Positions 7,963-47,376 of a stretch of 64,000 bases of DNA are shown here, piece after piece. The notes beneath the pieces are model-generated. The model was not told where the DNA came from. It ran no database searches and was given only the letters and a program-made list of their open reading frames with translations. Within the stretch, counting starts at the first letter, position 1. Each line of letters starts with the position of its first letter. This DNA comes from an uncultured Clostridia bacterium. Lineage in GTDB: Bacteria > Bacillota > Clostridia > TANB77 > CAG-508. The stretch lies in assembly GCA_934168305.1 (NCBI GenBank), contig CAKPNF010000002.1:98789-162788 (forward strand). The letters run 5' to 3'. Position numbers and translations under genes: made by a program.

Positions 7963-8862
7963 ATGTCATTAAAAGATAAAATACCAAATAAAATGCCTAG
8001 TTTACCAAATTTTTCAAAAATTGGAACAAGTAAAATAAAAGTATATGCATTTGTAGGACCATCAGGGACAGGAAAAAGTTATAGAGCACAAATGGTAGCA
8101 AGTGAAAAAAACATAAAATTTATAATAGATGATGGTCTTCTTATAATGGACAATAAAGTAATTGCAGGTGAGTCAGCTAAAAAAGCTCCAACAAAAATAG
8201 AAACAGTAAAACATGCATTATTTTATAAAGAAGAAGAAAAACAAGAAATAATAAAAGCATTAAAAAAATATAAACCAGAGAGTATATTAATATTAGGAAC
8301 ATCTGATGGAATGGTACAAAAAATAGCAGCTAATTTAGGATTACCAGAAATATCTGATACAACTTATATATCAGATGTAGCAACACAAGGAGAAATGGAG
8401 ACGGCAAGAAGAATAAGGGTAACAGAAGGGAAACATGTAATACCAGTACCAACATTTGAAATAAAAAAAGATTTTTCTGGATATTTATTAGATCCCCTTC
8501 AAATATTCAAAACAAAAGGAAGAGGAAATCAACCATATATATCAGAGAAATCAATTATAAGACCAACATTTAGTTATTTAGGAAATTTTACAATTTCAGA
8601 TACGGTATTTAGACAAATATTAGAATATTTAGCATCAAAAACATTAGGAATATATAAAGTTCAAAAAATAAGAGTAGACAATTTTGGTGAAGGTGTAAAA
8701 ATACATATGGAAGTTACCATAGTATATGGTTTCAATTTGATTGATGGAATTAATGAGTTTAAAAACAAGGCTAAAAAAGAAATAGAAAAATTAACTGCTA
8801 TGAATGTTGAAGAATTTGAAGTTGTAATTAAGAATATATATGTTCCAGAGAAGGGAGAATAA
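7963..8862 (+). CDS. P-loop NTPase domain fused to an Asp23/Gls24-family domain (hypothetical)
   Basis: A Walker A motif GPSGTGKS is at the N-terminus. The C-terminus (FTISDTVFRQILEYLAS...GVKIHMEVTIVYGFNLIDGINEFKNKAKKEIEKLTAMNVEEFEVVIKNIYV) matches the Asp23 / alkaline-shock-protein pattern. Confidence 0.6.
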   Translation: MSLKDKIPNKMPSLPNFSKIGTSKIKVYAFVGPSGTGKSYRAQMVASEKNIKFIIDDGLLIMDNKVIAGESAKKAPTKIETVKHALFYKEEEKQEIIKALKKYKPESILILGTSDGMVQKIAANLGLPEISDTTYISDVATQGEMETARRIRVTEGKHVIPVPTFEIKKDFSGYLLDPLQIFKTKGRGNQPYISEKSIIRPTFSYLGNFTISDTVFRQILEYLASKTLGIYKVQKIRVDNFGEGVKIHMEVTIVYGFNLIDGINEFKNKAKKEIEKLTAMNVEEFEVVIKNIYVPEKGE

Positions 8863-8863
8863 G

Positions 8864-9460
8864 ATGAAAGATATTTTAAAATCAATAGGTAGAGGGATTG
8901 TAAAAGGTGCAATTTGGATTTATTGTAAAATAGTATATAGATTTGAGGTAATAGGAAAAGAAAATATACCAAAAGAGGGTCCTATAATTATATGTGGAAA
9001 TCACAGAAGTTTTTTAGATCCACCATTAATGGAAGTAACAACAGGTAGATATACTAGATTTTTAGCAAAAGAAGAATTAACAAAAAATAAATTTTTAGCG
9101 TTTTTAGGTTATGTATTTGATGCAATATTAGTGAAGAGAGATTCAAAAGAGGTTATTGCACTTAAGGAATCTTTGAAAACTTTAAAGAATGGGGATTGTT
9201 TAGCTTTATTTCCAGAAGGAACAAGAAATGGCTTAGCAAAAGGTGAAAAAGTCAAAGATGGTGCAGCATTTTTTGCTGTAAGAAGCGGTGCACCTGTTGT
9301 ACCTTGTGGTATTAAAGGCGGAGAAAAAGGAAAAAGAAAAGTTACTATTACTTATGGAAAACCTTTAGATTTTAGTGAGTATAAAGGTAGCAAAGATAAA
9401 GAAGTTCTTGATAAGGTTACTGAGGAAATTATGAACAATATTATTGAACTTACAAAATAA
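8864..9460 (+). CDS. plsC: 1-acyl-sn-glycerol-3-phosphate acyltransferase
   Basis: The NHRSFLDPP (HxxxxD) and FPEGTR acyltransferase motifs are present. The ATG at 8864 follows an AGGGAG RBS. Confidence 0.8.
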   Translation: MKDILKSIGRGIVKGAIWIYCKIVYRFEVIGKENIPKEGPIIICGNHRSFLDPPLMEVTTGRYTRFLAKEELTKNKFLAFLGYVFDAILVKRDSKEVIALKESLKTLKNGDCLALFPEGTRNGLAKGEKVKDGAAFFAVRSGAPVVPCGIKGGEKGKRKVTITYGKPLDFSEYKGSKDKEVLDKVTEEIMNNIIELTK

Positions 9461-9512
9461 AATTGTATTTTTTAATAGAAAATTAGTGGAGATAATTTTT
9501 TTTAAAAGGTAT

Positions 9513-9547
9513 AAATAGTAAGTTGTTGTTGAGGTTAGATTTCTAAT
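9513..9547 (+). repeat. Direct repeat copy 1 (AAATAGTAAGTTGTTGTTGAGGTTAGATTT) upstream of the GNAT gene
   Basis: About 30 of 34 positions are identical to the copy at 10095-10129. The two copies bracket the GNAT ORF. Confidence 0.5.
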
Positions 9548-9572
9548 TATATAAAGAAAGGTTGAAAAATAA

Positions 9573-10052
9573 GTGATTGAAATAGTAGAATATAAGAATG
9601 AATATGCAAAAGATTTGTCAGAAATAATACTAGATAATATGTATAAAATTAATATTAAAGAGCATGGAAAAGATATAATAGATAGAATTTCAAAGTATTT
9701 TACGGAAGATGAAATAAAGAAAAATTTTCCACAAAGAACTAAATGCTTAGTAGCATTAAAAAATGAGAAGGTTGTTGGTACAGCAAGTATTGATCGATAT
9801 AAAGGTGATAAAACAGGAAAAAAGTACATTGTATTAACAGTATTTGTAAAAATAAAAAATCATCGACAAGGAATAGGAAAAGAATTAATTGAAAATATAG
9901 AAAAAATTGCAGTAAATGTTGGGTGTAAGGAGCTAGTAATACCTTCTTCTGTTTACGCTTGTGAATTTTACCGTAAATTTGGATTTGATTATCTAGATGG
10001 AAAGAAAATTCAAAATGAAGATAAGGAATATATTTTAACAAAAAAATATTAA
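9573..10052 (+). CDS. GNAT family N-acetyltransferase
   Basis: Motif A (HRQGIGKELIENIE) and a GNAT fold pattern are present. The start is a GTG. Confidence 0.75.
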   Translation: MIEIVEYKNEYAKDLSEIILDNMYKINIKEHGKDIIDRISKYFTEDEIKKNFPQRTKCLVALKNEKVVGTASIDRYKGDKTGKKYIVLTVFVKIKNHRQGIGKELIENIEKIAVNVGCKELVIPSSVYACEFYRKFGFDYLDGKKIQNEDKEYILTKKY

Positions 10053-10094
10053 TTGATTGCTAGAGGCAAATTACAATTTAGTAATTAGTTAGAA

Positions 10095-10129
10095 AAATAG
10101 TAAGTTGTCGCTGAGGTTGAATTTTGAAA
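10095..10129 (+). repeat. Direct repeat copy 2 (AAATAGTAAGTTGTCGCTGAGGTTGAATTT) downstream of the GNAT gene
   Basis: See copy 1. It lies between the GNAT gene and the recombinase gene. Confidence 0.5.
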
Positions 10130-10266
10130 TTTAAATAAAAAACTATAAATTTTTGAGGTGGGTATATAAAGTATGCTCATCTTTTATTATGTCAATTAAA
10201 TATTGTATAATATAGGTAGAGTTCTATATATTGTAAATTATGGAAAAATGTAAGGAGGTAATTGTC

Positions 10267-11262
10267 ATGAGAGAATTGTTTGTTGAAAAAGTAATTGATT
10301 GGGCAGGAGAATTTTTAGACAATAACCAAAGAATAAAATTAAAAGAGATACTTACAGAAATATGTTTAAATTATCACATTGAAATATTAGAACAAAACCA
10401 AAAACAAGAAATACAAAAGAACAATGAAGAAATATTAAATAAATTTATATCATCAAAAGAAATTGAAGGCTGTTCAGTTAGAACATTAAAATATTATAAA
10501 GATAATATAACAAAAATGTTAGATACTGTAAATCTTCCAATAAATGAAATTACAATGGAAACATTAAGAAATTATTTATCAAATTATAAAAACAATTCAA
10601 CTGCGGGTATGGTAACAATAGATAATATAAGAAGAACATTATCAAGTTTTTTTGCTTGGTTGGAAAACGAAGACTATATTGTAAAAAGTCCTGTTAGAAG
10701 AATCCATAAAGTAAAAGCAGTGAAAAAGGTAAAAGAAACGTTAACAGATGAAAATTTAGAAAAATTAAGAGATACTTGCTCAAATGTAAGAGATTTAGCA
10801 ATATTAGAACTATTAATTTCAACTGGTATGAGAGTCGGAGAACTTACTAGATTAAATATATCAGATATGAATTTTCAAGAAAGAAGTTGTATTGTTATAG
10901 GAAAAGGGAATAGTGAAAGAGAAGTTTATTTTAGTGCAAAGAGTAAAATGTATATAAAGAAATATTTGGAAACAAGAACAGATAATAATGAAGCATTATT
11001 TGTTTCACTTATAAAACCCTATAATCGATTAGGAATATCAGGGATTGAAATTGCTATTAGAAACTTAGGAAAACAAGCAAATATAAACAAGGTACATCCA
11101 CATAAATTTAGAAGAACAATGGCAACGATGGCTATTGATAAAGGCATGCCAATAGAACAAGTTCAAAAATTATTGGGACACATAAAAATAGATACTACAA
11201 TGGAATATGCAATGGTAAATCAAAATAATGTAAAAAATTCACATAGAAAATATATTAATTAA
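10267..11262 (+). CDS. Tyrosine-type site-specific recombinase/integrase (XerD-like with an N-terminal extension)
   Basis: The C-terminal catalytic region (HPHKFRRTMATMAIDKGMPIEQVQKLLGHIKIDTTMEYAMV) carries the R..H..R..Y signature. A SAM-like N-domain is present. A strong RBS AAGGAGG sits 8 nt upstream of the ATG. Confidence 0.85.
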   Translation: MRELFVEKVIDWAGEFLDNNQRIKLKEILTEICLNYHIEILEQNQKQEIQKNNEEILNKFISSKEIEGCSVRTLKYYKDNITKMLDTVNLPINEITMETLRNYLSNYKNNSTAGMVTIDNIRRTLSSFFAWLENEDYIVKSPVRRIHKVKAVKKVKETLTDENLEKLRDTCSNVRDLAILELLISTGMRVGELTRLNISDMNFQERSCIVIGKGNSEREVYFSAKSKMYIKKYLETRTDNNEALFVSLIKPYNRLGISGIEIAIRNLGKQANINKVHPHKFRRTMATMAIDKGMPIEQVQKLLGHIKIDTTMEYAMVNQNNVKNSHRKYIN

Positions 11263-11607
11263 ATTGGATAAATAAAAAGTTGAATGTATAAAGCAAAAAG
11301 TCAGGATTAAATGATAAAAAATTCAAAAATTATATTAAAACCTAGTAATATTAACGGTTACATGAAATTTAAAACATCAAAAACAGTTAAGGCCGTTGAT
11401 ATTGCTAGTTTTAGATATTTAATTAATATTTTATTGGATTTTTAAATTCTGAAATAGTTAATTTGGCTGAATATAATTTTATATATTTTTAATATACAAA
11501 AAATTAAATTTTTGTAATAAAAGATTTTTGTAATCCAATTGCATAAAGAATTACAACTTTTAAAAATAAAATTTCATGATTTAGTAATGGCAAAAAGTCA
11601 GAAAATA

Positions 11608-11636
11608 TAGACAATTCAATGTTTTTGTAATATAAT
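11608..11636 (+). promoter_or_regulatory. Sigma-A-like promoter TAGACA-17-TATAAT for the five-gene module
   Basis: The -35 element TAGACA is at 11608-11613 and the -10 element TATAAT at 11631-11636, with a 17 nt spacer. It lies about 30 bp upstream of the Nudix gene. Confidence 0.5.
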
Positions 11637-11663
11637 GATTGTATCAAAAAAGGAGGCATTTAA

Positions 11664-12206
11664 ATGGAAGAGAAGTTAGACGTATTAAATGAACGTGGGG
11701 AGTTTACAGGAAAGGTAGCTACAAGAGAAGAATGTCACAGGGAAGGATTGTGGCACAGAGCTGTATACGGATTCATAATAGATAAAAATTCAAATGTATT
11801 ATTACAAAAAAGAAGTCAAAATAAAAAACTATGGCCGAACAAATGGGATGTAACTGTTGGTGGACATGTGGATTCAGGTGAATTTGGAAGACAAACAATA
11901 ATCAGAGAGTGTAAAGAAGAACTTGGAATTGATGTAAAAGAAAACGAAATAAAATATCTAATATCTTCTACATCTGTGTATGAAAAGAATAACTATTCAA
12001 ATAAGCACTATGATGAATGTTATTTGATTTTGAAAGATGTTGACATTACAAAGTTAAAACTTCAAAAAGAGGAGGTATCTGATGTTCAGTATTTTTCGAA
12101 AGAAGAATTATTAGAAAGAATAGAAAATAATTTTGATGGATTAACAGAAAAAACTGGTTCATGGCATTTTTTAAAGAAAATATTAGAAGATGGTAGAATA
12201 AACTAA
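11664..12206 (+). CDS. Nudix hydrolase
   Basis: A complete Nudix box GGHVDSGEFGRQTIIRECKEELGI (Gx5Ex7REUxEExGU) is present. Confidence 0.85.
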   Translation: MEEKLDVLNERGEFTGKVATREECHREGLWHRAVYGFIIDKNSNVLLQKRSQNKKLWPNKWDVTVGGHVDSGEFGRQTIIRECKEELGIDVKENEIKYLISSTSVYEKNNYSNKHYDECYLILKDVDITKLKLQKEEVSDVQYFSKEELLERIENNFDGLTEKTGSWHFLKKILEDGRIN

Positions 12207-12242
12207 AATAGAGATTACAAATATAACATGGAGGTAAAATGT

Positions 12243-12893
12243 ATGTTGAGCTTACACTATGATTTAGATAATGAAAAAGTAAAATATTTAATTACTACAG
12301 ATGACAAATTAGGTAAATTAATTAAATATATCAATAAAACTGAATTGATAATTGAAGAAGATGGCTTTAAATGTATTGTTAAGTATATAATAGGACAGCA
12401 AATTAGTGATAAAGCTCGTGAAACTATTTGGCAACGTGTATGTGCAATTTTGAAAAATATAACACCTGAAAATATACTAGCGATAAATGATAATGAATTA
12501 AGAAAAGTAGGATTATCAGAACGTAAAATTAATTACATAAAAATATTAGCATCAGCTGTTATCAGTGAAGATATAAATTTTTATGATTTTAAGGAACTCA
12601 CCAATGAAGAAATTATAAAAAAGTTAACTGCATTAAAAGGTATTGGTCAATGGACTGCTGAAATGTATTTGATTTTTTCATTAGGAAGAGAAAATGTACT
12701 TTCAAAAGGAGATGGAACAATTAGACGTACAATACAGTGGATGTACGATTTGGAAAAATTACCATCTTCGGAAATATTGCTTAAATATTTTAGCAGTTGG
12801 ACTCAGTATGCAACAATTGTATCATCATATCTTTGGAAATCAATTGAATTAGGATTGGTGCAAAGACCTTTTAATGAGATTATATCAAATTAG
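12243..12893 (+). CDS. HhH-GPD family DNA glycosylase (AlkA / 3-methyladenine DNA glycosylase II-like)
   Basis: The helix-hairpin-helix LKGIGQWTAEMYLIFSLGRENVLSKGDGTIRR includes the catalytic Asp. The likely start is the ATG at 12243, after a GGAGG RBS. Confidence 0.75.
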   Translation: MLSLHYDLDNEKVKYLITTDDKLGKLIKYINKTELIIEEDGFKCIVKYIIGQQISDKARETIWQRVCAILKNITPENILAINDNELRKVGLSERKINYIKILASAVISEDINFYDFKELTNEEIIKKLTALKGIGQWTAEMYLIFSLGRENVLSKGDGTIRRTIQWMYDLEKLPSSEILLKYFSSWTQYATIVSSYLWKSIELGLVQRPFNEIISN

Positions 12894-12905
12894 GAGGCTA
12901 AAAGT

Positions 12906-14156
12906 ATGGATAATGGAAAATTATATTGGATGAATTATTCTATTAATATTGCTAATGGTTCAAAAGATAATAATTTGCGTGTAGGTGCTGTTTTAGTTAC
13001 AGAAGATAATAAGCTAGTTTGTTCTGCTTATACAGACGAATGTTCTGGTTTATCGTGGTATGAAATATTATTGTCTAAAATAGAAAAAATAAATGTAAAT
13101 AAGGCTTACTATTTATTTTTAACAGTAAATACACTATTTTCGGAATCAGAATTTGACTTAAATAAACTAATGGAAAAAATAGCCATTGAAGAAATATACA
13201 TAGGTGTTCCAGACCCTAATTTGGCAGATTATTTATCGAATGATCCGATTGGTACATTCAGGAATATTTATCGTTATTCAGACAATTTGAAAAGAATGAT
13301 ATTGCAGCAAAATCTTAATTATTACAGAAATGTTAAACAAAATATAAAATCTAGTCCATATTATTCTGCTAAGAGAATAAGCAATATAGTTATGGAAAAA
13401 CTAGAAGAAAAAGGTATTTTTATTTCTAAAGAAGAATTGCAATCAAATAAACAAATTGAAAAATTAATTCAATTGATTGTTGAAAAGTATAAGTTTAATA
13501 TAGATGATGCTAGTAAGCTAGTAAATTTGGTAATGTCTGAAGCATTTGATGAGAAATATGCAACATATAATTATTCAGATGATGCTCGTTCACTTAGTGT
13601 GGATTGGAAGAATAATTTTTTAAAGATATATAACAAACTGTTATTATCTTCATTGGAAAATAAAGATATATTAGATGTTGGTGTAGGAAGTGGTAATGAA
13701 GCAATAGCATTATTTTCTAATTGCCCTAATATTACATTTGTTGATATTGCACCAAATGGTTTGAAAAAGATAAAAAAACAAATTCCGAAATCAAATATTG
13801 TTGTATCAAGGGCTGAAAAGCTTGTTACATTAATAAATAATAGCTATGATATTTATATATCATTAAGAACATATAATTCGTCCTTTTTCAATGTAAAACA
13901 AGCAATTTCAGAAGCACATAGAGTTTTAAAAAAAGATGGTATTATAATTATTTCTATTGCAAATGGTTTTTTAAGCCCAGAGAATCAATATATAATTCCG
14001 GGCTTACTTATTCCAGGAACAGAGTTTGTTGATATTTATAGAGGGTTTGATATTATAAAGAAATTGTCGACAGAACTTTGTAATAATGGTTTTGAAGATA
14101 TTAAATTTTTTCCAACAAAGGTAGAACTTTTTTTAACGGCTAAGGCAAAAAAATGA
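12906..14156 (+). CDS. Fusion of a cytidine/dCMP-deaminase-fold-like N-domain (zinc ligands not conserved) to a class I SAM-dependent methyltransferase
   Basis: The N-domain reads VGAVLVTEDNKLVCSAYTDEC...YLFLTVNTL...IEEIYIGVPDPN. It parallels the CDA fold but lacks the H-A-E and PCxxC motifs. The C-domain carries MTase motif I (LDVGVGSGNEAIALF) and a post-II motif (VLKKDGIIIIS). Confidence 0.6.
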   Translation: MDNGKLYWMNYSINIANGSKDNNLRVGAVLVTEDNKLVCSAYTDECSGLSWYEILLSKIEKINVNKAYYLFLTVNTLFSESEFDLNKLMEKIAIEEIYIGVPDPNLADYLSNDPIGTFRNIYRYSDNLKRMILQQNLNYYRNVKQNIKSSPYYSAKRISNIVMEKLEEKGIFISKEELQSNKQIEKLIQLIVEKYKFNIDDASKLVNLVMSEAFDEKYATYNYSDDARSLSVDWKNNFLKIYNKLLLSSLENKDILDVGVGSGNEAIALFSNCPNITFVDIAPNGLKKIKKQIPKSNIVVSRAEKLVTLINNSYDIYISLRTYNSSFFNVKQAISEAHRVLKKDGIIIISIANGFLSPENQYIIPGLLIPGTEFVDIYRGFDIIKKLSTELCNNGFEDIKFFPTKVELFLTAKAKK

Positions 14157-14181
14157 TGTGAATTTTTAAAGGAGGTACTAA

Positions 14182-14937
14182 ATGATTGAACCAAAAACAT
14201 TTGCTCAGAAAGTAATAGAATTTAATAAAGAATTATCCAAAATATCAATGGAATTACCGGATGGTTTTAAAATTATAAATCCATTTAATGGAAGTCAAAA
14301 AGAAATAGTAAATGAAATTTCAACAGTATTCTACAAAAGGTTTTATAATGACTGTAATAAGCGTCATATAATATTAGGAAGTTCTCCAGCACGTAGAGGA
14401 ACAGCTATTACAGGTGTACCATTTGAGGATGCGGCACATCTTCAAAAAGAAACGGGTATTCTGATTGATAAGTTTTATGTTAACAAGTCATCGTCAGGCT
14501 TTTTATATGATGTAATTGAAAAATATGGTGGCTGCAAAAAGTTTTATTCTGATTTTTATATGAATTTTGTCTGTCCTGTTGGTATAGTTAGAACTAATTC
14601 AAAAGGAAATGAAGTTAACTGTAATTATTATGATAGTAAAAAATTACAAGAAACATTGTATTCACTTATTGTTAATTCAATACAGGCACAAATTGATTTA
14701 GGAATTGATACTTCCATATGTTATTGTATCGGAAGTGGAGAAAATTATACTTTTTTATCTAAGATAAATGAAAAACACAAATTTTTTGAAGAAATTATAC
14801 CATTAGAACATCCACGATTTATAATGCAATATAATTCAAAACATAAAGATGAATTTCTTGAAAAGTATTTGACAGCTTTAAAACAAAATCATAATAAAGA
14901 AAAGGAGAATAATATAGAATATGATAGAGAAAGATAG
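14182..14937 (+). CDS. Uracil-DNA glycosylase superfamily-like protein (divergent)
   Basis: A motif-A-like GSSPARRGTAITGVPFED (GxxPxxxGxxxxGxPF) and a motif-B-like EHPRF (HP) sit near the C-terminus. Several Cys residues are present. The family assignment needs an HMM search. Confidence 0.5.
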   Translation: MIEPKTFAQKVIEFNKELSKISMELPDGFKIINPFNGSQKEIVNEISTVFYKRFYNDCNKRHIILGSSPARRGTAITGVPFEDAAHLQKETGILIDKFYVNKSSSGFLYDVIEKYGGCKKFYSDFYMNFVCPVGIVRTNSKGNEVNCNYYDSKKLQETLYSLIVNSIQAQIDLGIDTSICYCIGSGENYTFLSKINEKHKFFEEIIPLEHPRFIMQYNSKHKDEFLEKYLTALKQNHNKEKENNIEYDRER

Positions 14938-15703
14938 TAAAATATTAGTTCATTTTGATACTAACGATACAAGTATATATCAGCTAAAAGGAGATAGTAT
15001 ATCATTAATAAAAAAAGAAAGAGTTTTTTTTAATGAAACACTAATACATGACGAGTTATTCAAAAAGATTGATTATGTTATTGAAAAACTAAGAATGATT
15101 GTAGAAAAAGTTGATAATGAAAGTGTAAGATTATATGCTACTGGAGTCTTTCAGGAATTTTCAGAAGAAGAACAAACACAATTAATAATACATGTTTTTG
15201 TAAATTCAGGCTTATGTTTTAATATAGTAAAGCCTGATTTAGAACAATTTTACATTGAAAAAGGTTTGGAGAAAAGTAACGAAAAAAATATTATTAATGG
15301 AATTGTTCAACAGGAATTTAGAAAGGTTGTTATATGTGGTAGTTTTCAACAGAATATGCAAGAAATAGGGAACATCATAGGAATCTTAAAAAAACGAAAT
15401 ATTCAGATATTAAGTCCTTGGACAATGGATATTGTTCCTGAGTCCTTAGGTACTGACTTTATTCTTCTAGAAGGTCAAGAGTTAGTAAATGAAAGGGATG
15501 CATGGAGACATAAATATGATCATATGAATAAATTTAAAAAAGCAGATGCTATTATAGTATGTAATCCTGAAGGAAGAATAGGAAAAGGGACTATGTTTGA
15601 ATTTGGTTTCATGATAGCGTATTCAAAAAGAATTATTTTTACAAATGAACCGAAAGACTTATCAATTCCATTTCCATATGAGATAGGATTAAATTTTATG
15701 TAA
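14921..15703 (+). CDS. Unknown N-domain fused to a nucleoside 2-deoxyribosyltransferase / DNPH1(Rcl)-like domain
   Basis: The C-terminal half reads KVVICGSF...ADAIIVCNPEGRIGKGTMFEFGFMIAYSKRIIF. It resembles the NDT/DNPH1 pattern (YFCGSI...ADaviAxLDg..D.GTa.EiGyA.algKpv). The ORF overlaps the upstream gene by 17 bp. Confidence 0.5.
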   Translation: MIEKDSKILVHFDTNDTSIYQLKGDSISLIKKERVFFNETLIHDELFKKIDYVIEKLRMIVEKVDNESVRLYATGVFQEFSEEEQTQLIIHVFVNSGLCFNIVKPDLEQFYIEKGLEKSNEKNIINGIVQQEFRKVVICGSFQQNMQEIGNIIGILKKRNIQILSPWTMDIVPESLGTDFILLEGQELVNERDAWRHKYDHMNKFKKADAIIVCNPEGRIGKGTMFEFGFMIAYSKRIIFTNEPKDLSIPFPYEIGLNFM

Positions 15704-15883
15704 TATTTTATTGAAATAGAATAATTTGAAATTTGCAAAAAGAACAGCTTATATAAGAATTTTTTAGATGTTCTTTTATTAAAAATATAAGTTATGCATC
15801 TTAGCAACAAATTACAATTTATCGTTGAAAATAAATTAGTAACAATTAATTATACTTTACATAAAATAAAGTCAAAAATTCAT

Positions 15884-15911
15884 TGACAAACTTTGAATTT
15901 AGTAGTATAAT
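15884..15911 (+). promoter_or_regulatory. Sigma-A promoter TTGACA-16-TATAAT upstream of typA
   Basis: A TTGACA is at 15884-15889 and a TATAAT at 15906-15911. Confidence 0.5.
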
Positions 15912-15960
15912 TTTAAAGTTAGAAAGAAACGGAATTTAAATAAAAAAAGGGGTAATAAAA

Positions 15961-17775
15961 ATGAACAACAAAAATATAAGAAACATAGCAATAATAGCAC
16001 ACGTTGACCATGGAAAAACAACATTAGTAGATGCATTATTAAGACAAAGTCATGTATTCAGAGAAAATGAACAAGTCCAAGAAAGAGTAATGGACTCAAA
16101 TGACCAAGAAAAAGAAAGAGGAATAACAATACTATCTAAAAACACATCAGTAATGCACGGAGACATCAAAATAAACATAGTAGACACACCAGGACATGCT
16201 GACTTCGGAGGAGAAGTAGAAAGAGTTTTAAAAACAGTTGATGGAGTTTTACTATTAGTAGACGCATTTGAAGGAGCAATGCCACAAACAAGAGAAGTAC
16301 TAAAAAAATCATTAGCATTAGGACTAAAACCAATAGTAGTAATAAACAAAATAGATAGACCTGGAGCACAACCAGAAAAAGTTGTAGATCAAGTTATCGA
16401 ATTATTCATTGAACTAGATGCAACAGACGAACAATTAGACTTCCCTGTAGTATATGCATCAGCAAAAAACGGAATTGCAAAAATGGACTTAGCAGATGAA
16501 ACAACAGATTTATCTTGCTTATTTGAAACTATAATAAACACAATAGAACCACCAAAATGTGAAATAGAAGGACCAGCACAAATGTTAGTATCTAACATAG
16601 ATTATGACGATTATGTTGGAAGAATTGGTATAGGAAGACTTGAAAGAGGAACAATGAAAGTTGGAATGCCAGTCAGCATTTGTGGAAAAGAAGACAAAAT
16701 AACACAAGGAAGAATAGCAAAATTATATACACACGTTGGACTTAAAAAAGTTGAAGTTGAAGAAGTTGGAGCAGGTGATATCATAGAATTTGCAGGACTA
16801 TCAGACATCAACATAGGTGATACAGTATGTGATTTTGAACATCCAGAAAAAATACCATTTGTAGACATTGACGAACCAACAGTAACAATGACATTTAGTG
16901 TAAACAATGGACCATTTGCTGGAAAAGAAGGACAATTTGTAACATCAAGACATATAAGAGATAGATTATATAAAGAACTAGAAAGAAACGTATCATTAAG
17001 AGTAAAAGATGGAGCAACACCAGACTCATTTGAAGTATCAGGTAGAGGTGAATTACATTTATCAGTATTAATCGAAACAATGAGAAGAGAAGGATTTGAA
17101 CTATTAGTTTCAAGACCAAAAGTTATTTTCAAAGAAATTGATGGAGTTAAATGTGAACCAATCGAACTATTAGTTGTAAATGTACCAGATGACTGTGTAG
17201 GAAATGTAATTGAAAAATTAGGAAGAAGAAAAGCTGAAATGGTTAACATGGAACCTGCAGAGGCTGGACATACAAAAATAGAATTCAGAATTCCTGCAAG
17301 AGGAATAATTGGATATAGAACAGAATTCCTTACAGACACAAAAGGTGAAGGAACAATGAACCACATATTTGACGCATATGAACCATATAAAGGAGATATC
17401 CAAGCTCGTGTTAGAGGAACAATAGTTGCATTTGAACCAGGTAAATCAGTAACATACGGATTATATAATGCACAAGATAAAGGTGACCTATTCATAGGAC
17501 CAGGTGTAGATGTTTACGAAGGTATGATTGTTGGATTAAATTCAAGAGGAGAAGATTTAGCAATAAATGTATGTAAAGAAAAACACTTAACAAATACTAG
17601 AGCATCAGGTTCAGATGAAGCATTAAGACTAGTTCCACCAATCCAAATGTCACTAGAAAAAGCTATTGAATTTATTCAAGATGATGAACTAGTTGAAATA
17701 ACACCAAAATCTATTAGATTGAGAAAAAAAATATTAGATTCTAAAGAAAGAGAAAGAGCTAATAGAAACAAATAA
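15961..17775 (+). CDS. typA: Translational GTPase TypA/BipA
   Basis: The G-domain carries AHVDHGKTTL, DTPGHADF and NKID. The 604 aa protein has EF-G-like architecture. Confidence 0.9.
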   Translation: MNNKNIRNIAIIAHVDHGKTTLVDALLRQSHVFRENEQVQERVMDSNDQEKERGITILSKNTSVMHGDIKINIVDTPGHADFGGEVERVLKTVDGVLLLVDAFEGAMPQTREVLKKSLALGLKPIVVINKIDRPGAQPEKVVDQVIELFIELDATDEQLDFPVVYASAKNGIAKMDLADETTDLSCLFETIINTIEPPKCEIEGPAQMLVSNIDYDDYVGRIGIGRLERGTMKVGMPVSICGKEDKITQGRIAKLYTHVGLKKVEVEEVGAGDIIEFAGLSDINIGDTVCDFEHPEKIPFVDIDEPTVTMTFSVNNGPFAGKEGQFVTSRHIRDRLYKELERNVSLRVKDGATPDSFEVSGRGELHLSVLIETMRREGFELLVSRPKVIFKEIDGVKCEPIELLVVNVPDDCVGNVIEKLGRRKAEMVNMEPAEAGHTKIEFRIPARGIIGYRTEFLTDTKGEGTMNHIFDAYEPYKGDIQARVRGTIVAFEPGKSVTYGLYNAQDKGDLFIGPGVDVYEGMIVGLNSRGEDLAINVCKEKHLTNTRASGSDEALRLVPPIQMSLEKAIEFIQDDELVEITPKSIRLRKKILDSKERERANRNK

Positions 17776-17798
17776 TATTATTTTATTGAGGTGAAAAA

Positions 17799-18134
17799 AT
17801 GGCCAAAAAAATGAATAAAAGGGGTAAAATAGAAATACATAGAATTACTCGTGGAGTTACAATCGATAATATTGCTAGAAATATTGAAGTTAGAAATAGT
17901 TCTGTTGCTGGAATAATAAGGGATGATACTAAAAATAGAACATATGTAATAAATAAAATATTGGATAATATGTCTAATGGAATGACAGAAGATGATTCAT
18001 TAGAATTAATAATGCAAGATAAAATTGTTGAACAATTTAAATATCTTGAAAACAATGGATGTAACATAAAGAATTGTTTTAGAAATTGGGCAAGAGGTTA
18101 TAAAAATAGAAAAGAAAAACAAAAAGAAAAATAA
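17799..18134 (+). CDS. Hypothetical protein (111 aa, basic C-terminus)
   Basis: It is an ORF with an RBS directly after typA. A weak terminator hairpin lies at about 18137-18165. No family was recognised. Confidence 0.45.
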   Translation: MAKKMNKRGKIEIHRITRGVTIDNIARNIEVRNSSVAGIIRDDTKNRTYVINKILDNMSNGMTEDDSLELIMQDKIVEQFKYLENNGCNIKNCFRNWARGYKNRKEKQKEK

Positions 18135-18186
18135 AAGTTAGACTTAAAGGTCTGACTTTTTTAAATAAAAAATAGAGGTTATTAAG

Positions 18187-18774
18187 ATGAATAAGAATGA
18201 ATTAGAAATAATAAAACAGAAAGCATTAGAAGCACATATACCTATAATAATGGATGATACTTTAGAGATAATTGAAAAAGAATTAAAAGAAAATCCACCA
18301 AAAAGAATATTGGAAATAGGAGCAGCAGTTGGATATTCTGCAATGTGTTTTTCAGAATTTTTAGCTGATGAAGGTAGAATAGATACAATTGAAAGAGATG
18401 AAGAAAGAATTCAAGAAGCAAAAGAAAACTTCAAAAAAGTTGGAGTAGAAAACAAAATCAACCTTTATGAAGGAGATGCTGTCGAAATTTTACCAACACT
18501 AAATGAAAAATATGATATGGTTTTTATTGATGCGGCAAAAGGAAAATATCCATTTTTCTTAAAGGAATCATTAAGAATGATAAATGAAAATGGAGTTATT
18601 TTTGCAGATAATATTTTGTATAAAGGTTATGTTATGAGTGATTATAACAAACATAAACAACGTACTGCTGTAAGAAATTTAAGAGAATATATAAAAGAAG
18701 TTTCTGAAAATCCAAATCTTGAAACAGAAATTTTGGAAGTAGGAGATGGATTAGCAATAAGTAAAATAAAATAG
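18187..18774 (+). CDS. Class I SAM-dependent O-methyltransferase (YrrM/TrmR-like)
   Basis: Motif I ILEIGAAVGYSAM is present. The ~195 aa size and the caffeoyl-CoA-OMT-like pattern (VFIDAAKGKY) fit. Confidence 0.7.
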   Translation: MNKNELEIIKQKALEAHIPIIMDDTLEIIEKELKENPPKRILEIGAAVGYSAMCFSEFLADEGRIDTIERDEERIQEAKENFKKVGVENKINLYEGDAVEILPTLNEKYDMVFIDAAKGKYPFFLKESLRMINENGVIFADNILYKGYVMSDYNKHKQRTAVRNLREYIKEVSENPNLETEILEVGDGLAISKIK

Positions 18775-18845
18775 TTATAAGTAAAAATTTCTCTATGTAA
18801 GTGGGGATGTTATTCTTTAAATAATTAAAAAAGAAGTGCACTGCG

Positions 18846-19997
18846 TTATAAGTAATGTACTTCTTTTTGTGCATCTTCTTTTTGACTATTAGTTTGTTGA
18901 TTTAATAATTTACAATTTCTAATTTTTGTTCTTAATTCTTTCATTGATATACCAAGTTCTTTTTCAACTTGATAAAGTTCATTTTTAAAGTTTTCATATG
19001 TAATAGGTAAAGTTCTTTTTGATAAACTTAGTTCGTGATTATTTAAAGATGTATTATAATAATGATAAAAACGTTCATTATGTGGAATATCATATACCTC
19101 ATATTTTCCTGTTTCGGGATTTGGAAAAGGTGGGATAACTGAATATGAGGGAACTCTTAAAGAAGAAGTATCATTTAGTAGCCTTGGTTTGTATTTGTTA
19201 TGAGCAATTTCGTTAGAACTTTTTGATTGACTTTCCATATAAAGAGTTCTAATTTGTGTTTCGTAGTCTAAATCTTTATTATTTTTTGATTCCATTTGAA
19301 TATGTAAAGACTGATATCCATTTGGCTTCGGACATTCAATATAATCTCTTGTAATATATTCCTTATCAGAATTTGAACGATTTGAATTAACATCTTCTTT
19401 CATTCTAAAATTTGTATTAATTCTAAAATCATATAATGCCTTTACGACATCATAACAAATTTTTTTTAGAACTTTTTCACTTCTACAATTTTTATACTCT
19501 GTAATTATAATTCTTTCTGCAATAATGTCGTTTATATATGGTGATTTTCCATTTTCTATATTATGGTCTAATTTTGTTATATAACTTTCATAAGATTTTG
19601 TTCTGATTTTTATTGTAAAAACCAAGCCCGGAAATCTCTCTTTTAAGAATTCATTTTCTTTTAATGCATATTCTTTTATTTCATCTACATATTCTTTGGT
19701 ATATAATTGATATCTATTTAGTAAGTCTTGATAGTCTGGATAATTCTTTAAATATGAAAGCTTGTTTTCAACTAAAGGTAATTGAAAAAGCAAATGATTT
19801 GAGGAATCATCTGAAGTATTTGCTAATCTTACATTTAGGTATTTATTATCATCAGATATACTAACTTGTAAATTTTTAGATACATTTAATAAACCTAATT
19901 CGGATAGTATGGAATTTTTATCAAAATTAGAATTGGAAATATTGCTTTTACAAGAAACTTCGTATTTTAAATTTTTTTTAAAATTATTTGTTTTCAA
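18846..19997 (-). CDS. RelA/SpoT-domain (RSH) nucleotide pyrophosphokinase-domain protein, divergent and extended
   Basis: The synthetase-domain motifs are present: IKIRTKSYESYITKL (RxKxxxSxxxK), NDIIAERII (DxxGxR-like), PNGYQSLHIQM (GYxSxH) and ETQIRTLYMES...AHNKYK. These are embedded in a 383 aa protein with about 100 aa N-terminal and 115 aa C-terminal extensions. Confidence 0.7.
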   Translation of the reverse strand: MKTNNFKKNLKYEVSCKSNISNSNFDKNSILSELGLLNVSKNLQVSISDDNKYLNVRLANTSDDSSNHLLFQLPLVENKLSYLKNYPDYQDLLNRYQLYTKEYVDEIKEYALKENEFLKERFPGLVFTIKIRTKSYESYITKLDHNIENGKSPYINDIIAERIIITEYKNCRSEKVLKKICYDVVKALYDFRINTNFRMKEDVNSNRSNSDKEYITRDYIECPKPNGYQSLHIQMESKNNKDLDYETQIRTLYMESQSKSSNEIAHNKYKPRLLNDTSSLRVPSYSVIPPFPNPETGKYEVYDIPHNERFYHYYNTSLNNHELSLSKRTLPITYENFKNELYQVEKELGISMKELRTKIRNCKLLNQQTNSQKEDAQKEVHYL

Positions 19998-20170: not shown

Positions 20171-21406
20171 ATGAAAAAAATAGAACTATTAGCACCAGCA
20201 GGATCATTTGAAAAAGCAAAAACAGCATTTAAATATGGAGCAGACGCAGTATATTGTGGAACATCATCATTATCACTAAGAACAAGAGCAGATATGGATA
20301 ATGACGACTTAATAAAAACAATAGAATATGCACACAGCATAGGAAAAAGAGTACATGTAACACTAAACATATTTGCATGGGACGATAAATATGAAGAAAT
20401 AATAGAAATGGCAAAAATATTAAATGAAGTAAAACCAGACGCAATAATAGCAGCAGACGGAGGAGTAATAGAAACATTAAAACAATATGCACCAAATGTA
20501 CCGATACATGTAAGTACACAAGCAAACATAGTAAGTGTACATGATGCAAACTTCTGGTATAAAAACGGAGCCGAAAGAGTAATAATGGCAAGAGAAATAA
20601 ACAAAGAACAATTAAAATACATAATGGAAAACAAACCAAAAGACTTAGAAGTAGAAATGTTCGGACATGGTTCAATATGTTTTGCGTTTTCAGGAAGATG
20701 TTTTTTGAGTGATTTTATGTGCGGAAGAAGTGCAAATTTAGGAGATTGTGCACAAAGTTGTAGATGGTCGTACAATTTATATGCAGAAGAGAAAAACAAT
20801 CCTGGACAATTATATCCAATAGAAGAAAGCAAATATGGAACAAGTATATTCTCATCAAAAGATTTATGCTTGATAAAAGAGATACCAGAAATAATAGATA
20901 TGGGTATAGATAGCTTAAAAATAGAAGGAAGACTAAAAACAGAGTATTACATAGCAAGCGTGATAAATGTTTATAGAAATGCAATTGACGATTATATGAA
21001 AGACCCAGAAAATTATGATTATACAAAGTATATGAAAGAAATTGAAAAGGTAAAAACAAGAGAATTCACAACATTTTATTTTAATGATAGAAAAAATAAA
21101 GATATCCAAGATTTAAGTGGAAGACAATATAATGACAAATATGAATTTGGTGGAAAAATATTAAAATACGAAGAAGAAAAATCAACAATAGAAATAAAAA
21201 ATAAATTGATGCTAGGAGATACAATTGAAATAATAATTCCAAACAAGCTAGAACCAGAAATATTCAAGATAGAAAAATTATGGGATTATGAAACAGGAGA
21301 AAAAATCGATAGTGTAAGTCCTGGTGTAAAAGGACAAAAAGTATTTATGAAATTGCCAATCAAATGTGAAGAAGGATGGATATTAAGAAGAAAGAAGAGG
21401 GATTAA
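20171..21406 (+). CDS. Peptidase U32 family protein
   Basis: The N-terminus is ELLAPAGSFEKAKTAFKYGADAVYCG and the core is E.GHGS.C, the U32 collagenase-like signature. The last codons (KRD-stop) lie inside a repeat unit. Confidence 0.85.
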   Translation: MKKIELLAPAGSFEKAKTAFKYGADAVYCGTSSLSLRTRADMDNDDLIKTIEYAHSIGKRVHVTLNIFAWDDKYEEIIEMAKILNEVKPDAIIAADGGVIETLKQYAPNVPIHVSTQANIVSVHDANFWYKNGAERVIMAREINKEQLKYIMENKPKDLEVEMFGHGSICFAFSGRCFLSDFMCGRSANLGDCAQSCRWSYNLYAEEKNNPGQLYPIEESKYGTSIFSSKDLCLIKEIPEIIDMGIDSLKIEGRLKTEYYIASVINVYRNAIDDYMKDPENYDYTKYMKEIEKVKTREFTTFYFNDRKNKDIQDLSGRQYNDKYEFGGKILKYEEEKSTIEIKNKLMLGDTIEIIIPNKLEPEIFKIEKLWDYETGEKIDSVSPGVKGQKVFMKLPIKCEEGWILRRKKRD

Positions 21407-21537
21407 GGGGCCACCACACAAAATCCCTCTTTCTTGAACCAAAGTTGACGTTTTGAACCATTGGTTCAAAACTTTGGTTTATTTAAATATTCTAAAAATT
21501 TTAAAAGAGGGATTTTGTGTGGTGGCCCCTTAATCCC
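21399..21537. repeat. Family-1 palindromic repeat: two inverted 29 bp units GGGATTAAGGGGCCACCACACAAAATCCC enclosing nested family-3-like palindromes
   Basis: The units are at 21399-21427 and 21509-21537 (inverted). The inner inverted repeats are AACCAAAGTT/AACTTTGGTT and TTTTGAACCA/TGGTTCAAAA. Both convergent genes terminate (KRD-TAA) within the units. Confidence 0.8.
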
Positions 21538-22090
21538 TCTTTTCTTCATTATTGTCTTCTAATAATATATCAAGTATTTTAGGATATATTTTAGAAGCGT
21601 TTTTATTCCAATTATCCACAATTTTTTTTGCTCTTTCACGAGAACCTGCAAAAGTTTTTACTTCAAATATCGTTTCATTTTTTTCAATAACCCTACATTT
21701 AATAATATAATCATCTTCACTTTTAGGAATAAATTCAGCTACAATAGAAGTTTCATTAGCTATAGTAGTAAATTCTTTCTTAAAAACATTGTCAGCCTTT
21801 AATTTTAATATTCCTGGCAATACATCAATTGTAAGAGAAAGTGCATTTTTTCCTTCGCTTGTTATTTTTAGTACAGATTCTTCTTCTTCATCTTTAGTGA
21901 ATATGCCAACTAATTTGGAATCTAATAAATCAGTCAAAACTTCTTTAAAATAAAAGTAATTAACATTATTTATAGAAGAGATAATTTTATATAATCCACC
22001 TTCCAATATACCATTTGGAATTTTATCTAAGATATATAAAATTAAAACTTTATTTTCAGCCAAAGTAGTTGTATTATCTGAACTAGACAT
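21530..22090 (-). CDS. Hypothetical protein (186 aa), convergent with the U32 gene
   Basis: It is an ORF with an RBS. The C-terminal codons KRD-stop are encoded by the repeat unit. No confident family was recognised. Confidence 0.55.
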   Translation of the reverse strand: MSSSDNTTTLAENKVLILYILDKIPNGILEGGLYKIISSINNVNYFYFKEVLTDLLDSKLVGIFTKDEEEESVLKITSEGKNALSLTIDVLPGILKLKADNVFKKEFTTIANETSIVAEFIPKSEDDYIIKCRVIEKNETIFEVKTFAGSRERAKKIVDNWNKNASKIYPKILDILLEDNNEEKRD

Positions 22091-46113: not shown

Positions 46114-47298
46114 ATGAATAAAAAAACTGTAAAAGACATTAATTTAAAAGGAAAAAAAGTATTTGTAAGATGTGATTTCAACGTACCAATGGACGAAAAT
46201 CAAAAAATAACAGACAACACAAGAATAGTTGCAGCATTACCAACAATAAAATATTTATTAGAGCAAAATTGTAAAATAATATTAGCATCACATTTAGGAA
46301 GACCAAAGGGAGAAGTAAAACCAGAATTTTCTTTAAAACCAGTAGCAAAAGAATTATCAAAATTATTAAATAAAGAAGTTATTATGGCAAATGATGTAAT
46401 AGGAGAAGATGCTACATCTAAAGCAGCAAACCTAAAAGAAGGAGAAATAATGCTACTTGAAAACGTAAGATTCCACAGAGAAGAAACAGACAATGACCCA
46501 GAATTTGCAAAAAAATTAGCATCAATGGCAGAAATATTTGTAAATGATGCATTCGGAGCAGCACATAGAGCACATGCATCAACAGCAGGAATAGCATCAT
46601 ATATACCTGCAGTATCAGGTTTTCTAATAGAAAAAGAATTAAATGTATTAGGAAATGCAATAAACAATCCTGAAAGACCATTTGTAGCAATACTTGGTGG
46701 GGCAAAAGTATCTGATAAAATAGGAGTAATTGATAGCTTATTAGACAAAGTAGACACATTAATGATAGGTGGAGGAATGGCATATACATTCTTTAAAGCA
46801 CAAGGATATAATGTAGGAAATTCACTATGTGAGGTAGACAAAACAGGATTAGCATTAGAAGCTATGGAAAAAGCAAAACAAAAAGGTGTAAAACTATTAT
46901 TACCTGTTGACACAAAAGTAGGAAAGGAATTTAAACCAGATACAGAAAGCAAAACAGTTGCATGGACAGAAATACCAGATGATTGGGAAGGTTTTGATAT
47001 TGGAGAAAAAACAATTGCGATGTTTAAAGAAGAATTAAAAAATGCCAAAACAGTAATATGGAATGGACCATTAGGATTATTTGAATTTGATCAATTTGCA
47101 ATTGGAACAAATGAAATAGCAAAAGCTTTAGCCGAATTAGATGCAACAACAATTATAGGAGGAGGAGACTCTGGAGCAGCAGTAGAAAAAGCAGGATTAG
47201 CAGACAAAATGACACATATTTCTACAGGTGGAGGAGCATCACTTGAGTTCTTAGAAGGAAAAAAACTACCAGGAATTGAATGCTTACAAGATAAATAA
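46114..47298 (+). CDS. pgk: Phosphoglycerate kinase
   Basis: The N-terminus is [14 protein letters not shown]. The 394 aa PGK fold with GGGASLE is present. Confidence 0.9.
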
Positions 47299-47303
47299 AA
47301 AGA

Positions 47304-47376
47304 GGGATTAAGGGGCCACCACACAAAATCCCTCCAAAAAATTAGCCGGGATTTTATGTGGTGGCCCATTAATCCC
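47304..47376. repeat. Family-1 palindromic repeat (inverted pair of 29 bp units, second copy slightly diverged) between pgk and tpiA
   Basis: GGGATTAAGGGGCCACCACACAAAATCCC is at 47304-47332 and GGGATTTTATGTGGTGGCCCATTAATCCC at 47348-47376. It begins 5 bp after the pgk stop. Confidence 0.8.

Follow-up and report, generated by a model that had tools for sequence, protein, structure and literature searches.

A recombinase-bearing mobile unit with a five-gene operon in an integron-like cassette array of gut Clostridia

The recombinase gene and the five-gene operon

We analyzed a 64,000-nucleotide stretch of DNA, hereafter the window, from an uncultured Clostridia bacterium (GenBank assembly GCA_934168305.1, contig CAKPNF010000002.1, positions 98,789 to 162,788 of the forward strand), in which a tyrosine recombinase gene stands ahead of five co-directional open reading frames (ORFs) coding for proteins related to enzymes of nucleotide and DNA-base processing. 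The recombinase gene and this operon together form one discrete 5.75-kb unit (window ~10068-15820), bounded by a 12-bp direct repeat with the core sequence AAATTACAATTT. The unit comprises the following features:

10267-11262, plus strand: tyrosine recombinase of 331 aa, Xer-like and of the hsdS-shufflon clade (Phage_integrase, 129 bits)
11275-11590, no strand: lineage-specific insertion of ~315 bp in the recombinase-NUDIX spacer, not in the relatives L010, L011, L013 and L068
11608-11636, plus strand: operon promoter TAGACA-17-TATAAT, conserved in the same four relatives
11664-12206, plus strand: NUDIX hydrolase of the IDI/YfcD/DR0079-like subgroup (Pfam 70.4 bits, cut-off 21.1), Nudix box intact
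12243-12893, plus strand: HhH-GPD DNA glycosylase of the Mag/AlkA-II type (Pfam 59.6 bits, cut-off 26.2)
12906-14156, plus strand: zinc-less RibD-like deaminase fold, helical linker and class I S-adenosylmethionine (SAM) methyltransferase in one protein; triad member 1
14182-14937, plus strand: SMUG2-family glycosylase of the UDG superfamily (PDB 5H0J, E=4.2e-64); triad member 2
14921-15703, plus strand: Ppx/GppA domain-I-like half joined to an NDT/DNPH1/MilB-like N-glycosidase domain; triad member 3, the signature protein

These six genes had been called by a first-pass annotation of the window, and all of them are present at the positions it gave; the recombinase ORF has an alternative start at 10240. 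Its intergenic gaps of 36, 12 and 25 bp, with an overlap of 17 bp in the final pair, are right given the 216-aa start of the HhH-GPD gene at 12243, which the gene calls take (the frame is open from 12228), and the non-coding spacer that it put at 400 bp 3' of the recombinase gene measures 401 bp. The near-consensus promoter it had proposed for the operon is kept in the four relatives despite different surrounding sequence, while promoter-like sites in general are no more frequent in this AT-rich DNA than chance predicts (49 against an expected 52). The same annotation erred in wedging the block directly between plsC and typA, because a gene for a GNAT acetyltransferase separates plsC from the recombinase gene. 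The compositional check it had suggested gave no anomaly: GC is 0.25-0.28 in the block and its flanks alike, and a compositional island is thereby ruled out.

Site-bounded units in a cassette array

The extent of the unit is evident from comparison with related contigs. The shared DNA runs from 10068 (10091 in L007) to 15820 at ~98.85% identity and has sharp edges, with AAATTACAATTT at both, and the contigs that encode an identical signature protein show three or more flanks unrelated to one another, namely plsC/GNAT ... typA as in the window, Cupin/DUF6512 ... Cupin/HxlR/DUF5131/radical SAM, and RuvB/QueH-GNAT on the left. The 64 kb of the window contain two exact copies of AAATTACAATTT against 0.19 expected, both at the boundaries of the unit, and two exact copies of its inverted near-copy AATAGTAAKTTG, the L-type site, at 9514 and 10096 against 0.09 expected. 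A more distant version (L068), with an 89% identical recombinase and a 72% identical operon, has the same two ends as the unit in the window; in this copy an IS110-family transposase gene (L068 6808-7974) lies between the methyltransferase and UDG genes and splits the operon. The sites and the neighboring unit to the left are arranged as follows:

9514-9525, plus strand: L-type site AATAGTAAGTTG, an inverted core copy with one mismatch; left edge of the array and of the GNAT unit
9573-10052, plus strand: GNAT acetyltransferase gene (Pfam Acetyltransf_10/1/7), cargo of a separate single-gene cassette
10059-10079, plus strand: R-type site GCTAGAGGCAAATTACAATTT with its core at 10068-10079; closes the GNAT unit on the right and is the left one of the two direct repeats around the recombinase unit
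10080-10107, plus strand: linker AGTAATTAGTTAGAA and second L-type site (10096-10107), forming with the preceding core a composite inter-cassette site
15800-15820, plus strand: R-type site CTTAGCAACAAATTACAATTT with its core at 15809-15820; closes both the recombinase unit and the array on the right

Units end in the core AAMTTACAATTT, usually after TTAG(A)GCGA, giving the upstream consensus TTAG(A)GCGA-n-AAMTTACAATTT, and often start with an inverted near-copy of the core, ATAGTAAKTTG. The site 5' of the recombinase gene reads GGCAAATTAC-AATTTA-GTAATTAGTTA, an 11-6-11 layout whose arms agree at ~9 of 11-12 positions. A degenerate inverted-core-like sequence, AAATTAGTAACAATT, lies at 15833-15847, 12 nt past the last core, which suggests that the terminal site of the array may also be in two parts.

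The GNAT gene constitutes its own unit (~9513-10079) with the same ends as the recombinase unit. An identical GNAT protein follows Rho, a cation ATPase, QueH-GNAT, Ham1 or plsC, that is, at least five unrelated contexts, and the homology between GNAT units in such contexts begins at the L-type site at 9514; this protein was seen on 570 contigs, always at the left edge of a variable region. Strains with more than 99% identical flanks bear different arrays between plsC and typA:

GNAT, then recombinase + operon (the window)
DUF7010, then a 141-aa ORF
DUF7010 alone
an array that contains a recombinase remnant and ends in MYG1/HD genes
an array that ends in DUF3267

In a lineage ~90% identical the plsC-typA interval is empty of cassettes; in all, the locus shows four alternative arrays and this one empty state. 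The first-pass annotation, which had proposed a comparison of relatives at this junction, had missed the larger context: an array of site-bounded mobile cassettes. At the typA side every array ends in ...TTACAATTT, followed directly past the boundary by ATCGTTG, and this end closes four different arrays; L060 and L056 differ by exactly one cassette, located between two cores. The unit boundaries, the mobility and the strain-to-strain variation of the cassettes are direct observations. As for the target of insertion, typA has a perfect promoter (TTGACA-17-TATAAT, 15883-15911), and in L072, the lineage without cassettes, the -35 element of typA comes from the 3' end of plsC, indicating that the array was inserted between plsC and the typA promoter region. 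Another array variant (L074, 1-304) retains the GNAT 3' end, the composite site, ~190 bp of the recombinase upstream region and then a 77% identical fragment of the recombinase gene; it looks like a decayed recombinase unit.

Beyond this locus, at least 120 metagenome stretches contain the composite 33-bp junction, made of core, linker and inverted core, and a single contig can have as many as three of them. Among the matches listed, 47 cassettes lie 3' of composite sites and fall into 32 distinct clusters; they range from 263 to 4658 bp (median ~690 bp), and nearly all consist of one co-oriented plus-strand ORF. At its end each has the core (AAMTTACAAT), which the inverted core follows after 1-70 nt of spacer. 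Among others, the cassettes encode HTH proteins, VanZ, acyltransferases, GNATs, TetR and a Cass2-family protein. One neighboring unit in the same arrays (L001 2714-3792) carries MGMT (DNA_binding_1) and Tag (3-methyladenine glycosylase I), so that a second DNA-repair cargo rides the cassette system. On the same contig, the unit after the operon (L001 10900-13545) consists of Cupin (on the minus strand), HxlR, DUF5131 and radical SAM genes and is closed by a third core copy, at which L002 and L006 part from L001 exactly; in L002 an IS110 element lies just beyond. A 4.66-kb in-array unit (L105 4194-8863) contains hsdS-like fragments and, on the opposite strand, a paralogue 64% identical to the recombinase, which ties the cassette system to Type I restriction-modification (R-M) shufflons.

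The recombinase itself is best matched by the NCBIfam model XerA_Arch (241.6 bits, cut-off 220) and fails the integron-integrase models TIGR02249 (79.7 bits, cut-off 265) and NF011946 (37.8 bits, cut-off 435). Its nearest annotated relatives are recombinases flanked by hsdS genes, as in the Type I R-M shufflons, with 56% identity over the full length and 62% in the core; no hsdS gene was found in window positions 8000-19000. Small faecal-virome contigs (5.2-5.8 kb) with recombinases 54-56% identical were considered as excised circles and rejected: they are hsdS shufflon fragments of 39-42% GC, with no terminal overlap and no sites.

A few features of the surrounding non-coding DNA may be added. 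In the four relatives lacking the insertion at 11275-11590 the recombinase-NUDIX spacer is ~86-91 bp. The repeat GCAAAAAGTCAG lies at both edges of the insertion, which holds a called 44-aa ORF (~11308-11442) and degenerate core-like sequences (GAATTACAACTTT ... TTTAGTAATGG); it may be what remains of a junction site, or else a small element that inserted here. The sole terminator-like hairpin of the region (10155-10183; 13 pairs, T-rich tail) lies in the recombinase unit, 5' of the recombinase gene. A search for regulatory RNA returned no Rfam family at E<=1 except one chance snoRNA match. Elsewhere in the window, a short repeat of ~38 bp with inverted copies connects 21387-21547 and 47297-47334, with secondary BLAST hits near the DUF4364/Ldh region.

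The cargo proteins and the conserved triad

Domain searches place the cargo in recognizable enzyme families, and the NUDIX, HhH-GPD, Methyltransf_11 (54.9 bits, cut-off 21.2) and UDG (44.3 bits, cut-off 24.3) assignments all stand well above the Pfam cut-offs. The nearest solved relatives of the NUDIX protein in the PDB are Deinococcus DR0079 (E=6.5e-12) and E. coli YfcD (E=4.9e-11), besides the IPP isomerases, and its translation conforms to the Nudix box GX5EX7REUXEEXGU with GGHVDSGEFGRQTIIRECKEELGI. The HhH-GPD protein belongs to the short Mag/AlkA-II group (PDB 2H56, E=1.8e-36; S. pombe Mag1, E=1.5e-27) and has the catalytic Asp in place, its GIGQWTAEM...SKGD aligning to GIGQWTAEM...SVGD of 2H56. 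Catalytic motifs are kept in the NUDIX, HhH-GPD and methyltransferase proteins and appear to be kept in the NDT-like one.

The first-pass annotation fared unevenly on the remaining three proteins. It had proposed a CDA-fold-like domain in the methyltransferase fusion; the dCMP_cyt_deam_1 model reaches only 16.2 bits (cut-off 25), and it is a structure model that backs the fold, of RibD-like type, for residues ~1-150. The loss of zinc ligands that it had described was borne out by a motif check and by the model: the H/C-A-E and PCxxC motifs are missing, which sets the domain apart from genuine CDA deaminases. The fused methyltransferase resembles small-molecule methyltransferases. The second triad protein had been termed UDG-superfamily-like; the family holds, and what had been missed is a characterized family within it, SMUG2. 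The protein is ~50% identical over its whole length to PDB 5H0J/5H0K, which we take to be Pedobacter heparinus SMUG2 (the PDB record title of 5H0J is 'uncharacterized protein'), its motif 2, LEHPRF, is identical to that of 5H0J, and NCBI names its homologues 'SMUG2 DNA glycosylase family protein'. The SMUG2 enzymes are reported (PMC8307549) to be broad in specificity, excising U, its derivatives, hypoxanthine and xanthine. For the last protein, the NDT-like call falls just under the Nuc_deoxyrib_tr cut-off (26.5 bits against 28.8) and is supported at the level of fold by a structure model. Its N-terminal domain, previously left as unknown, is Ppx/GppA domain-I-like in the model; a Ppx/GppA phosphatase has two ASKHA domains making the active site, and the present protein has a half-domain. 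Longer relatives of the signature protein (370-435 aa; P0323, P0325, P0328 and others) match it C-terminally at the NDT-like domain in two stretches; in these proteins the NDT-like domain may be joined to a full Ppx/GppA module of two domains.

Relatives of the signature protein were found in 35 Bacillota species in a scan with one genome per species, including Clostridium, Butyricicoccus, Lachnospiraceae (among them Sporofaciens musculi), Roseburia, Oscillospiraceae, Erysipelotrichaceae and RF39-type Bacilli. Wherever the flank is long enough, the genes for the methyltransferase fusion, the UDG-like protein and the NDT fusion stand side by side in one constant order, down to identities of 37%, 33% and 45%, respectively, while HhH-GPD accompanies them in 24 of the 35 loci and NUDIX in 15. 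Neighbor clustering across the triad loci gave no sixth conserved family beyond the five. The same triad is present on six large Streptomyces plasmids at 42-44% identity. The methyltransferase/SMUG2/Ppx-NDT triad is thus a three-gene unit of no known function conserved across two phyla. This bears out the earlier view of the five genes as functionally linked rather than a chance housekeeping set, and the linkage reaches far beyond one lineage, the test that the first-pass annotation had set for itself. Its suggestion that the operon travels with the recombinase holds in part: there is a shared mobile block, which is confined to close relatives, and the recombinase is found with other cargo as well.

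The signature fusion is seldom encountered: 1.84 billion proteins yielded 26 cluster representatives at E<=1e-30. It has no relative in IMG/VR or among GenBank phage records, and the PHROGs matches of the unit proteins are generic only (NUDIX, methyltransferase, integrase); a phage origin was rejected on these grounds. In a 57%-identical relative (L065 9832-16363) the triad is followed by two pyruvate-kinase-like genes, radical SAM, NUDIX, CYTH and NTP_transf_5, another nucleotide-centered neighborhood.

Function, alternatives and comparison with known systems

Taken together, we favor an interpretation, to which we assign a probability of roughly 0.5, in which the segment ~10068-15820 is a mobile unit in a cassette array whose cargo clears one class of non-canonical base. 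Units would be gained, lost and exchanged by site-specific recombination at the cores, with the carried Xer-like recombinase as the likely catalyst; a crossover within the shared TTACAA segment would lead to integration, excision and reshuffling of units. The operon, under its own conserved promoter, would then act on the base at every level: the NUDIX protein would turn the aberrant (d)NTP into a monophosphate, the Ppx-NDT fusion would split this nucleotide at its N-glycosidic bond, the two glycosylases, of SMUG2 and Mag/AlkA type, would excise the base from DNA, and the pseudo-deaminase domain might bind the released base or nucleotide so that the fused methyltransferase can methylate it. 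The source of the base could be damage, a toxic analogue or phage DNA. Of the nucleotide or DNA-base sanitation or anti-phage module in the first-pass annotation, it is the linked gene set that stands; its function is read from context.

Several points weigh against this interpretation. With regard to the cargo, every enzymatic step and the substrate are inferred, and the methyltransferase is hard to place in a pathway of clean-up alone. In the UDG-like protein motif 1 is GSSPARRG as opposed to GINPGRFG in 5H0J, an Asn-to-Ser change found throughout the Bacillota and Streptomyces clade; a polar residue is missing at this position in some UDG families. (The GSSPA variant was considered as a marker of triad membership and rejected, as a stand-alone Listeria booriae homologue carries it too.) In the two Streptomyces plasmids examined, genes of biosynthesis type (AMP-binding, KS-like and thioesterase) follow the triad. 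With regard to mobility, a scan of metagenome contigs found no right end of the unit joined to its left end, as in a circle or tandem, and the contigs compared are all metagenome assemblies in which misjoins at repeats are possible; the same junctions recur across many samples, different assemblers and contigs of up to 860 kb. Finally, a recombinase 86-88% identical occurs with sigma-factor-like genes and no operon (L091), and most composite sites among the matches listed have no recombinase gene nearby; the role of the recombinase in moving the units is for this reason argued from adjacency and family alone.

The first alternative for the operon is dedicated anti-phage defence, in which the glycosylases would hit modified phage DNA, the NUDIX and NDT-like enzymes would destroy the modified nucleotide pool, and the methyltransferase would mark or neutralize the product. 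Cassette-borne HhH and UDG-like glycosylases of the Brig1, Brig2 and Dag families offer a precedent, as they protect against modified-base phages (PMC11078745; bioRxiv 10.1101/2025.10.29.685425). Moreover, the module, carried on mobile cassettes, varies from strain to strain and has a rare and patchy distribution among classes; its copy in L068 adjoins the conjugation genes MobC, relaxase, TraG and TrbL; and in L205 and L206 the triad lies directly downstream of a Hachiman system. However, the latter is the single defence-island neighbor among the contexts examined, the closest relatives of the enzymes are ordinary repair enzymes, and the MGMT and Tag cassette suggests that plain repair genes ride the same arrays. 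PADLOC-DB 2.0 likewise matches generic domains only (NUDIX to PDC-S07, E=4.5e-12; the methyltransferase domain to mad2, E=1.6e-13), with no complete system; neither the NDT fusion nor the recombinase had a hit, and literature searches gave no match, in agreement with the earlier statement that this is no named system. As the known defence glycosylases act as single genes, defence would leave the five-gene logic unexplained; we regard it as possible and on balance doubtful.

A second alternative concerns the motor rather than the cargo: the cassettes could be moved by another enzyme, host XerC/D or a recombinase elsewhere, with the local gene being only cargo or a former shufflon invertase. This would fit the finding that, among the matches listed, the recombinase gene follows only one of 89 composite sites (as does GNAT, also 1 of 89), the dif-like 11-6-11 layout of the site 5' of the recombinase gene, the hsdS shufflon invertases that are its nearest annotated relatives, and the paralogue with hsdS fragments inside the array of L105. 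On the other hand, the recombinase unit and the recombinase-free units have identical ends, the two-armed site is found directly upstream of the recombinase gene in every copy, and integrons likewise employ a single integrase gene for many cassettes; an external enzyme is unlikely in our estimate.

Less probable still is a biosynthetic or modifying pathway, in which the triad would make or install a methylated base or nucleoside, for example through NDT-like base exchange, methyltransferase tailoring and base insertion or exchange by the UDG-fold protein. The resemblance to small-molecule methyltransferases, the AMP-binding, KS-like and thioesterase genes mentioned above, and the phosphotransferase, NUDIX, glycosyltransferase and HIT genes near the triad on the same two Streptomyces plasmids would all suit such a pathway; yet the recurrent neighbors of the triad in Bacillota comprise only the five families and no biosynthetic genes, a kinase- or polymerase-type partner is absent, and we know of no precedent for base insertion by a UDG-fold enzyme. 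Last, a chance gathering of housekeeping repair genes beside a chromosomal XerC/XerD-type recombinase, for which the housekeeping members of each domain family and the GC equal to the flanks might speak, is very improbable given the unrelated contexts and sharp repeat-bounded edges of the block, the emptying or replacement of the same locus in near-identical strains, and the triad order kept across two phyla.

In a wider and more tentative proposal, which we think has the odds against it, gut Clostridia would possess a separately evolved, integron-like form of cassette capture, in which a shufflon-type Xer recombinase acts on AAATTACAATTT/ATAGTAAKTTG, and the unit with the recombinase would bear a new five-enzyme set that recognizes one non-canonical base and destroys it as free base, nucleotide and DNA residue, with possible immunity against modified-DNA phages or toxic analogues.

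Among the known systems, Brig1, Brig2 and Dag can be likened to the present cargo by fold and by setting, being UDG-fold and HhH-fold glycosylases on mobile cassettes, but they are single genes, whereas here two glycosylases are joined by three nucleotide-processing enzymes. SMUG2 shares with the second triad protein whole-length similarity, motif 2 and its NCBI family name; the differences lie in motif 1 and in the embedding of the gene in a conserved triad. By analogy, and with no orthology implied, the operon could also be compared with the human handling of aberrant nucleotides by NUDT15, DNPH1, SMUG1 and TPMT, which would represent the same four activities (pyrophosphatase, nucleotide N-glycosidase, DNA glycosylase and base methyltransferase); in humans the genes are scattered and form no operon. 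The triad joins a DNA glycosylase to nucleotide-pool enzymes, and identifying its substrate might uncover a new pathway of repair, detoxification or antiviral action.

On the side of mobility, the closest annotated relatives of the recombinase are those of the hsdS shufflons, which work on short repeats. In contrast to them, the gene in the window has no flanking hsdS genes, and since the sites flanking the unit are direct repeats, excision and integration are to be expected rather than the inversion seen in shufflons. The Xer-dependent modules, such as the pdif modules of Acinetobacter plasmids and IMEX, are gene modules bounded by short inverted recombinase sites. Xer/dif sites are ~28 bp long, with two 11-bp arms and a 6-bp spacer, and are bound by host XerC/D. 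Shared with them are the inverted L and R sites around the GNAT and recombinase units, the Xer-like recombinase and the 11-6-11 upstream site. They differ in that the units here carry their own recombinase and presumably do not rely on host XerC/D, and many are split by direct repeats of one core; further, the site sequence bears no evident resemblance to dif sites.

Extensive parallels exist with integrons, a main route of gene capture in Gram-negative bacteria. Both have arrays of short, mostly single-ORF, co-oriented cassettes with diverse accessory cargo (one Cass2-family protein in the present case), with a conserved core, a variable 1-70-nt spacer and an inverted core making up the site between cassettes; both show gain and loss of single cassettes between strains, and both have one tyrosine recombinase gene for many cassettes. 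Against this, the recombinase described here scores below the IntI models and belongs to the Xer/shufflon clade, and its gene sits inside a mobile unit. The arrays lie at several chromosomal loci, mostly with no adjacent recombinase gene, unlike an array anchored at an attI site beside the integrase gene. The sites are shorter and AT-rich; attC sites fold as imperfect single-strand hairpins, and in the predicted single-strand folds of the present sites the R and L cores pair in most cases, the hairpins being weak (dG -1.4 to -8.2 kcal/mol, z +0.17 to -3.7). The host, too, is a member of the Bacillota, from which true integrons are almost absent (PMC9024848). Literature searches on the gene combination, on DUF4918 and on integron-like systems in Firmicutes/Clostridia returned no prior description. 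The cassette system of these gut Clostridia is hence integron-like, previously undescribed in the searchable literature and probably built on a different recombinase clade. If this holds true, cassette capture arose more than once, a similar system having emerged with another clade of recombinases in abundant Clostridia of the human gut, and the junction site provides a defined handle for mining strain-level accessory genes in gut metagenomes.

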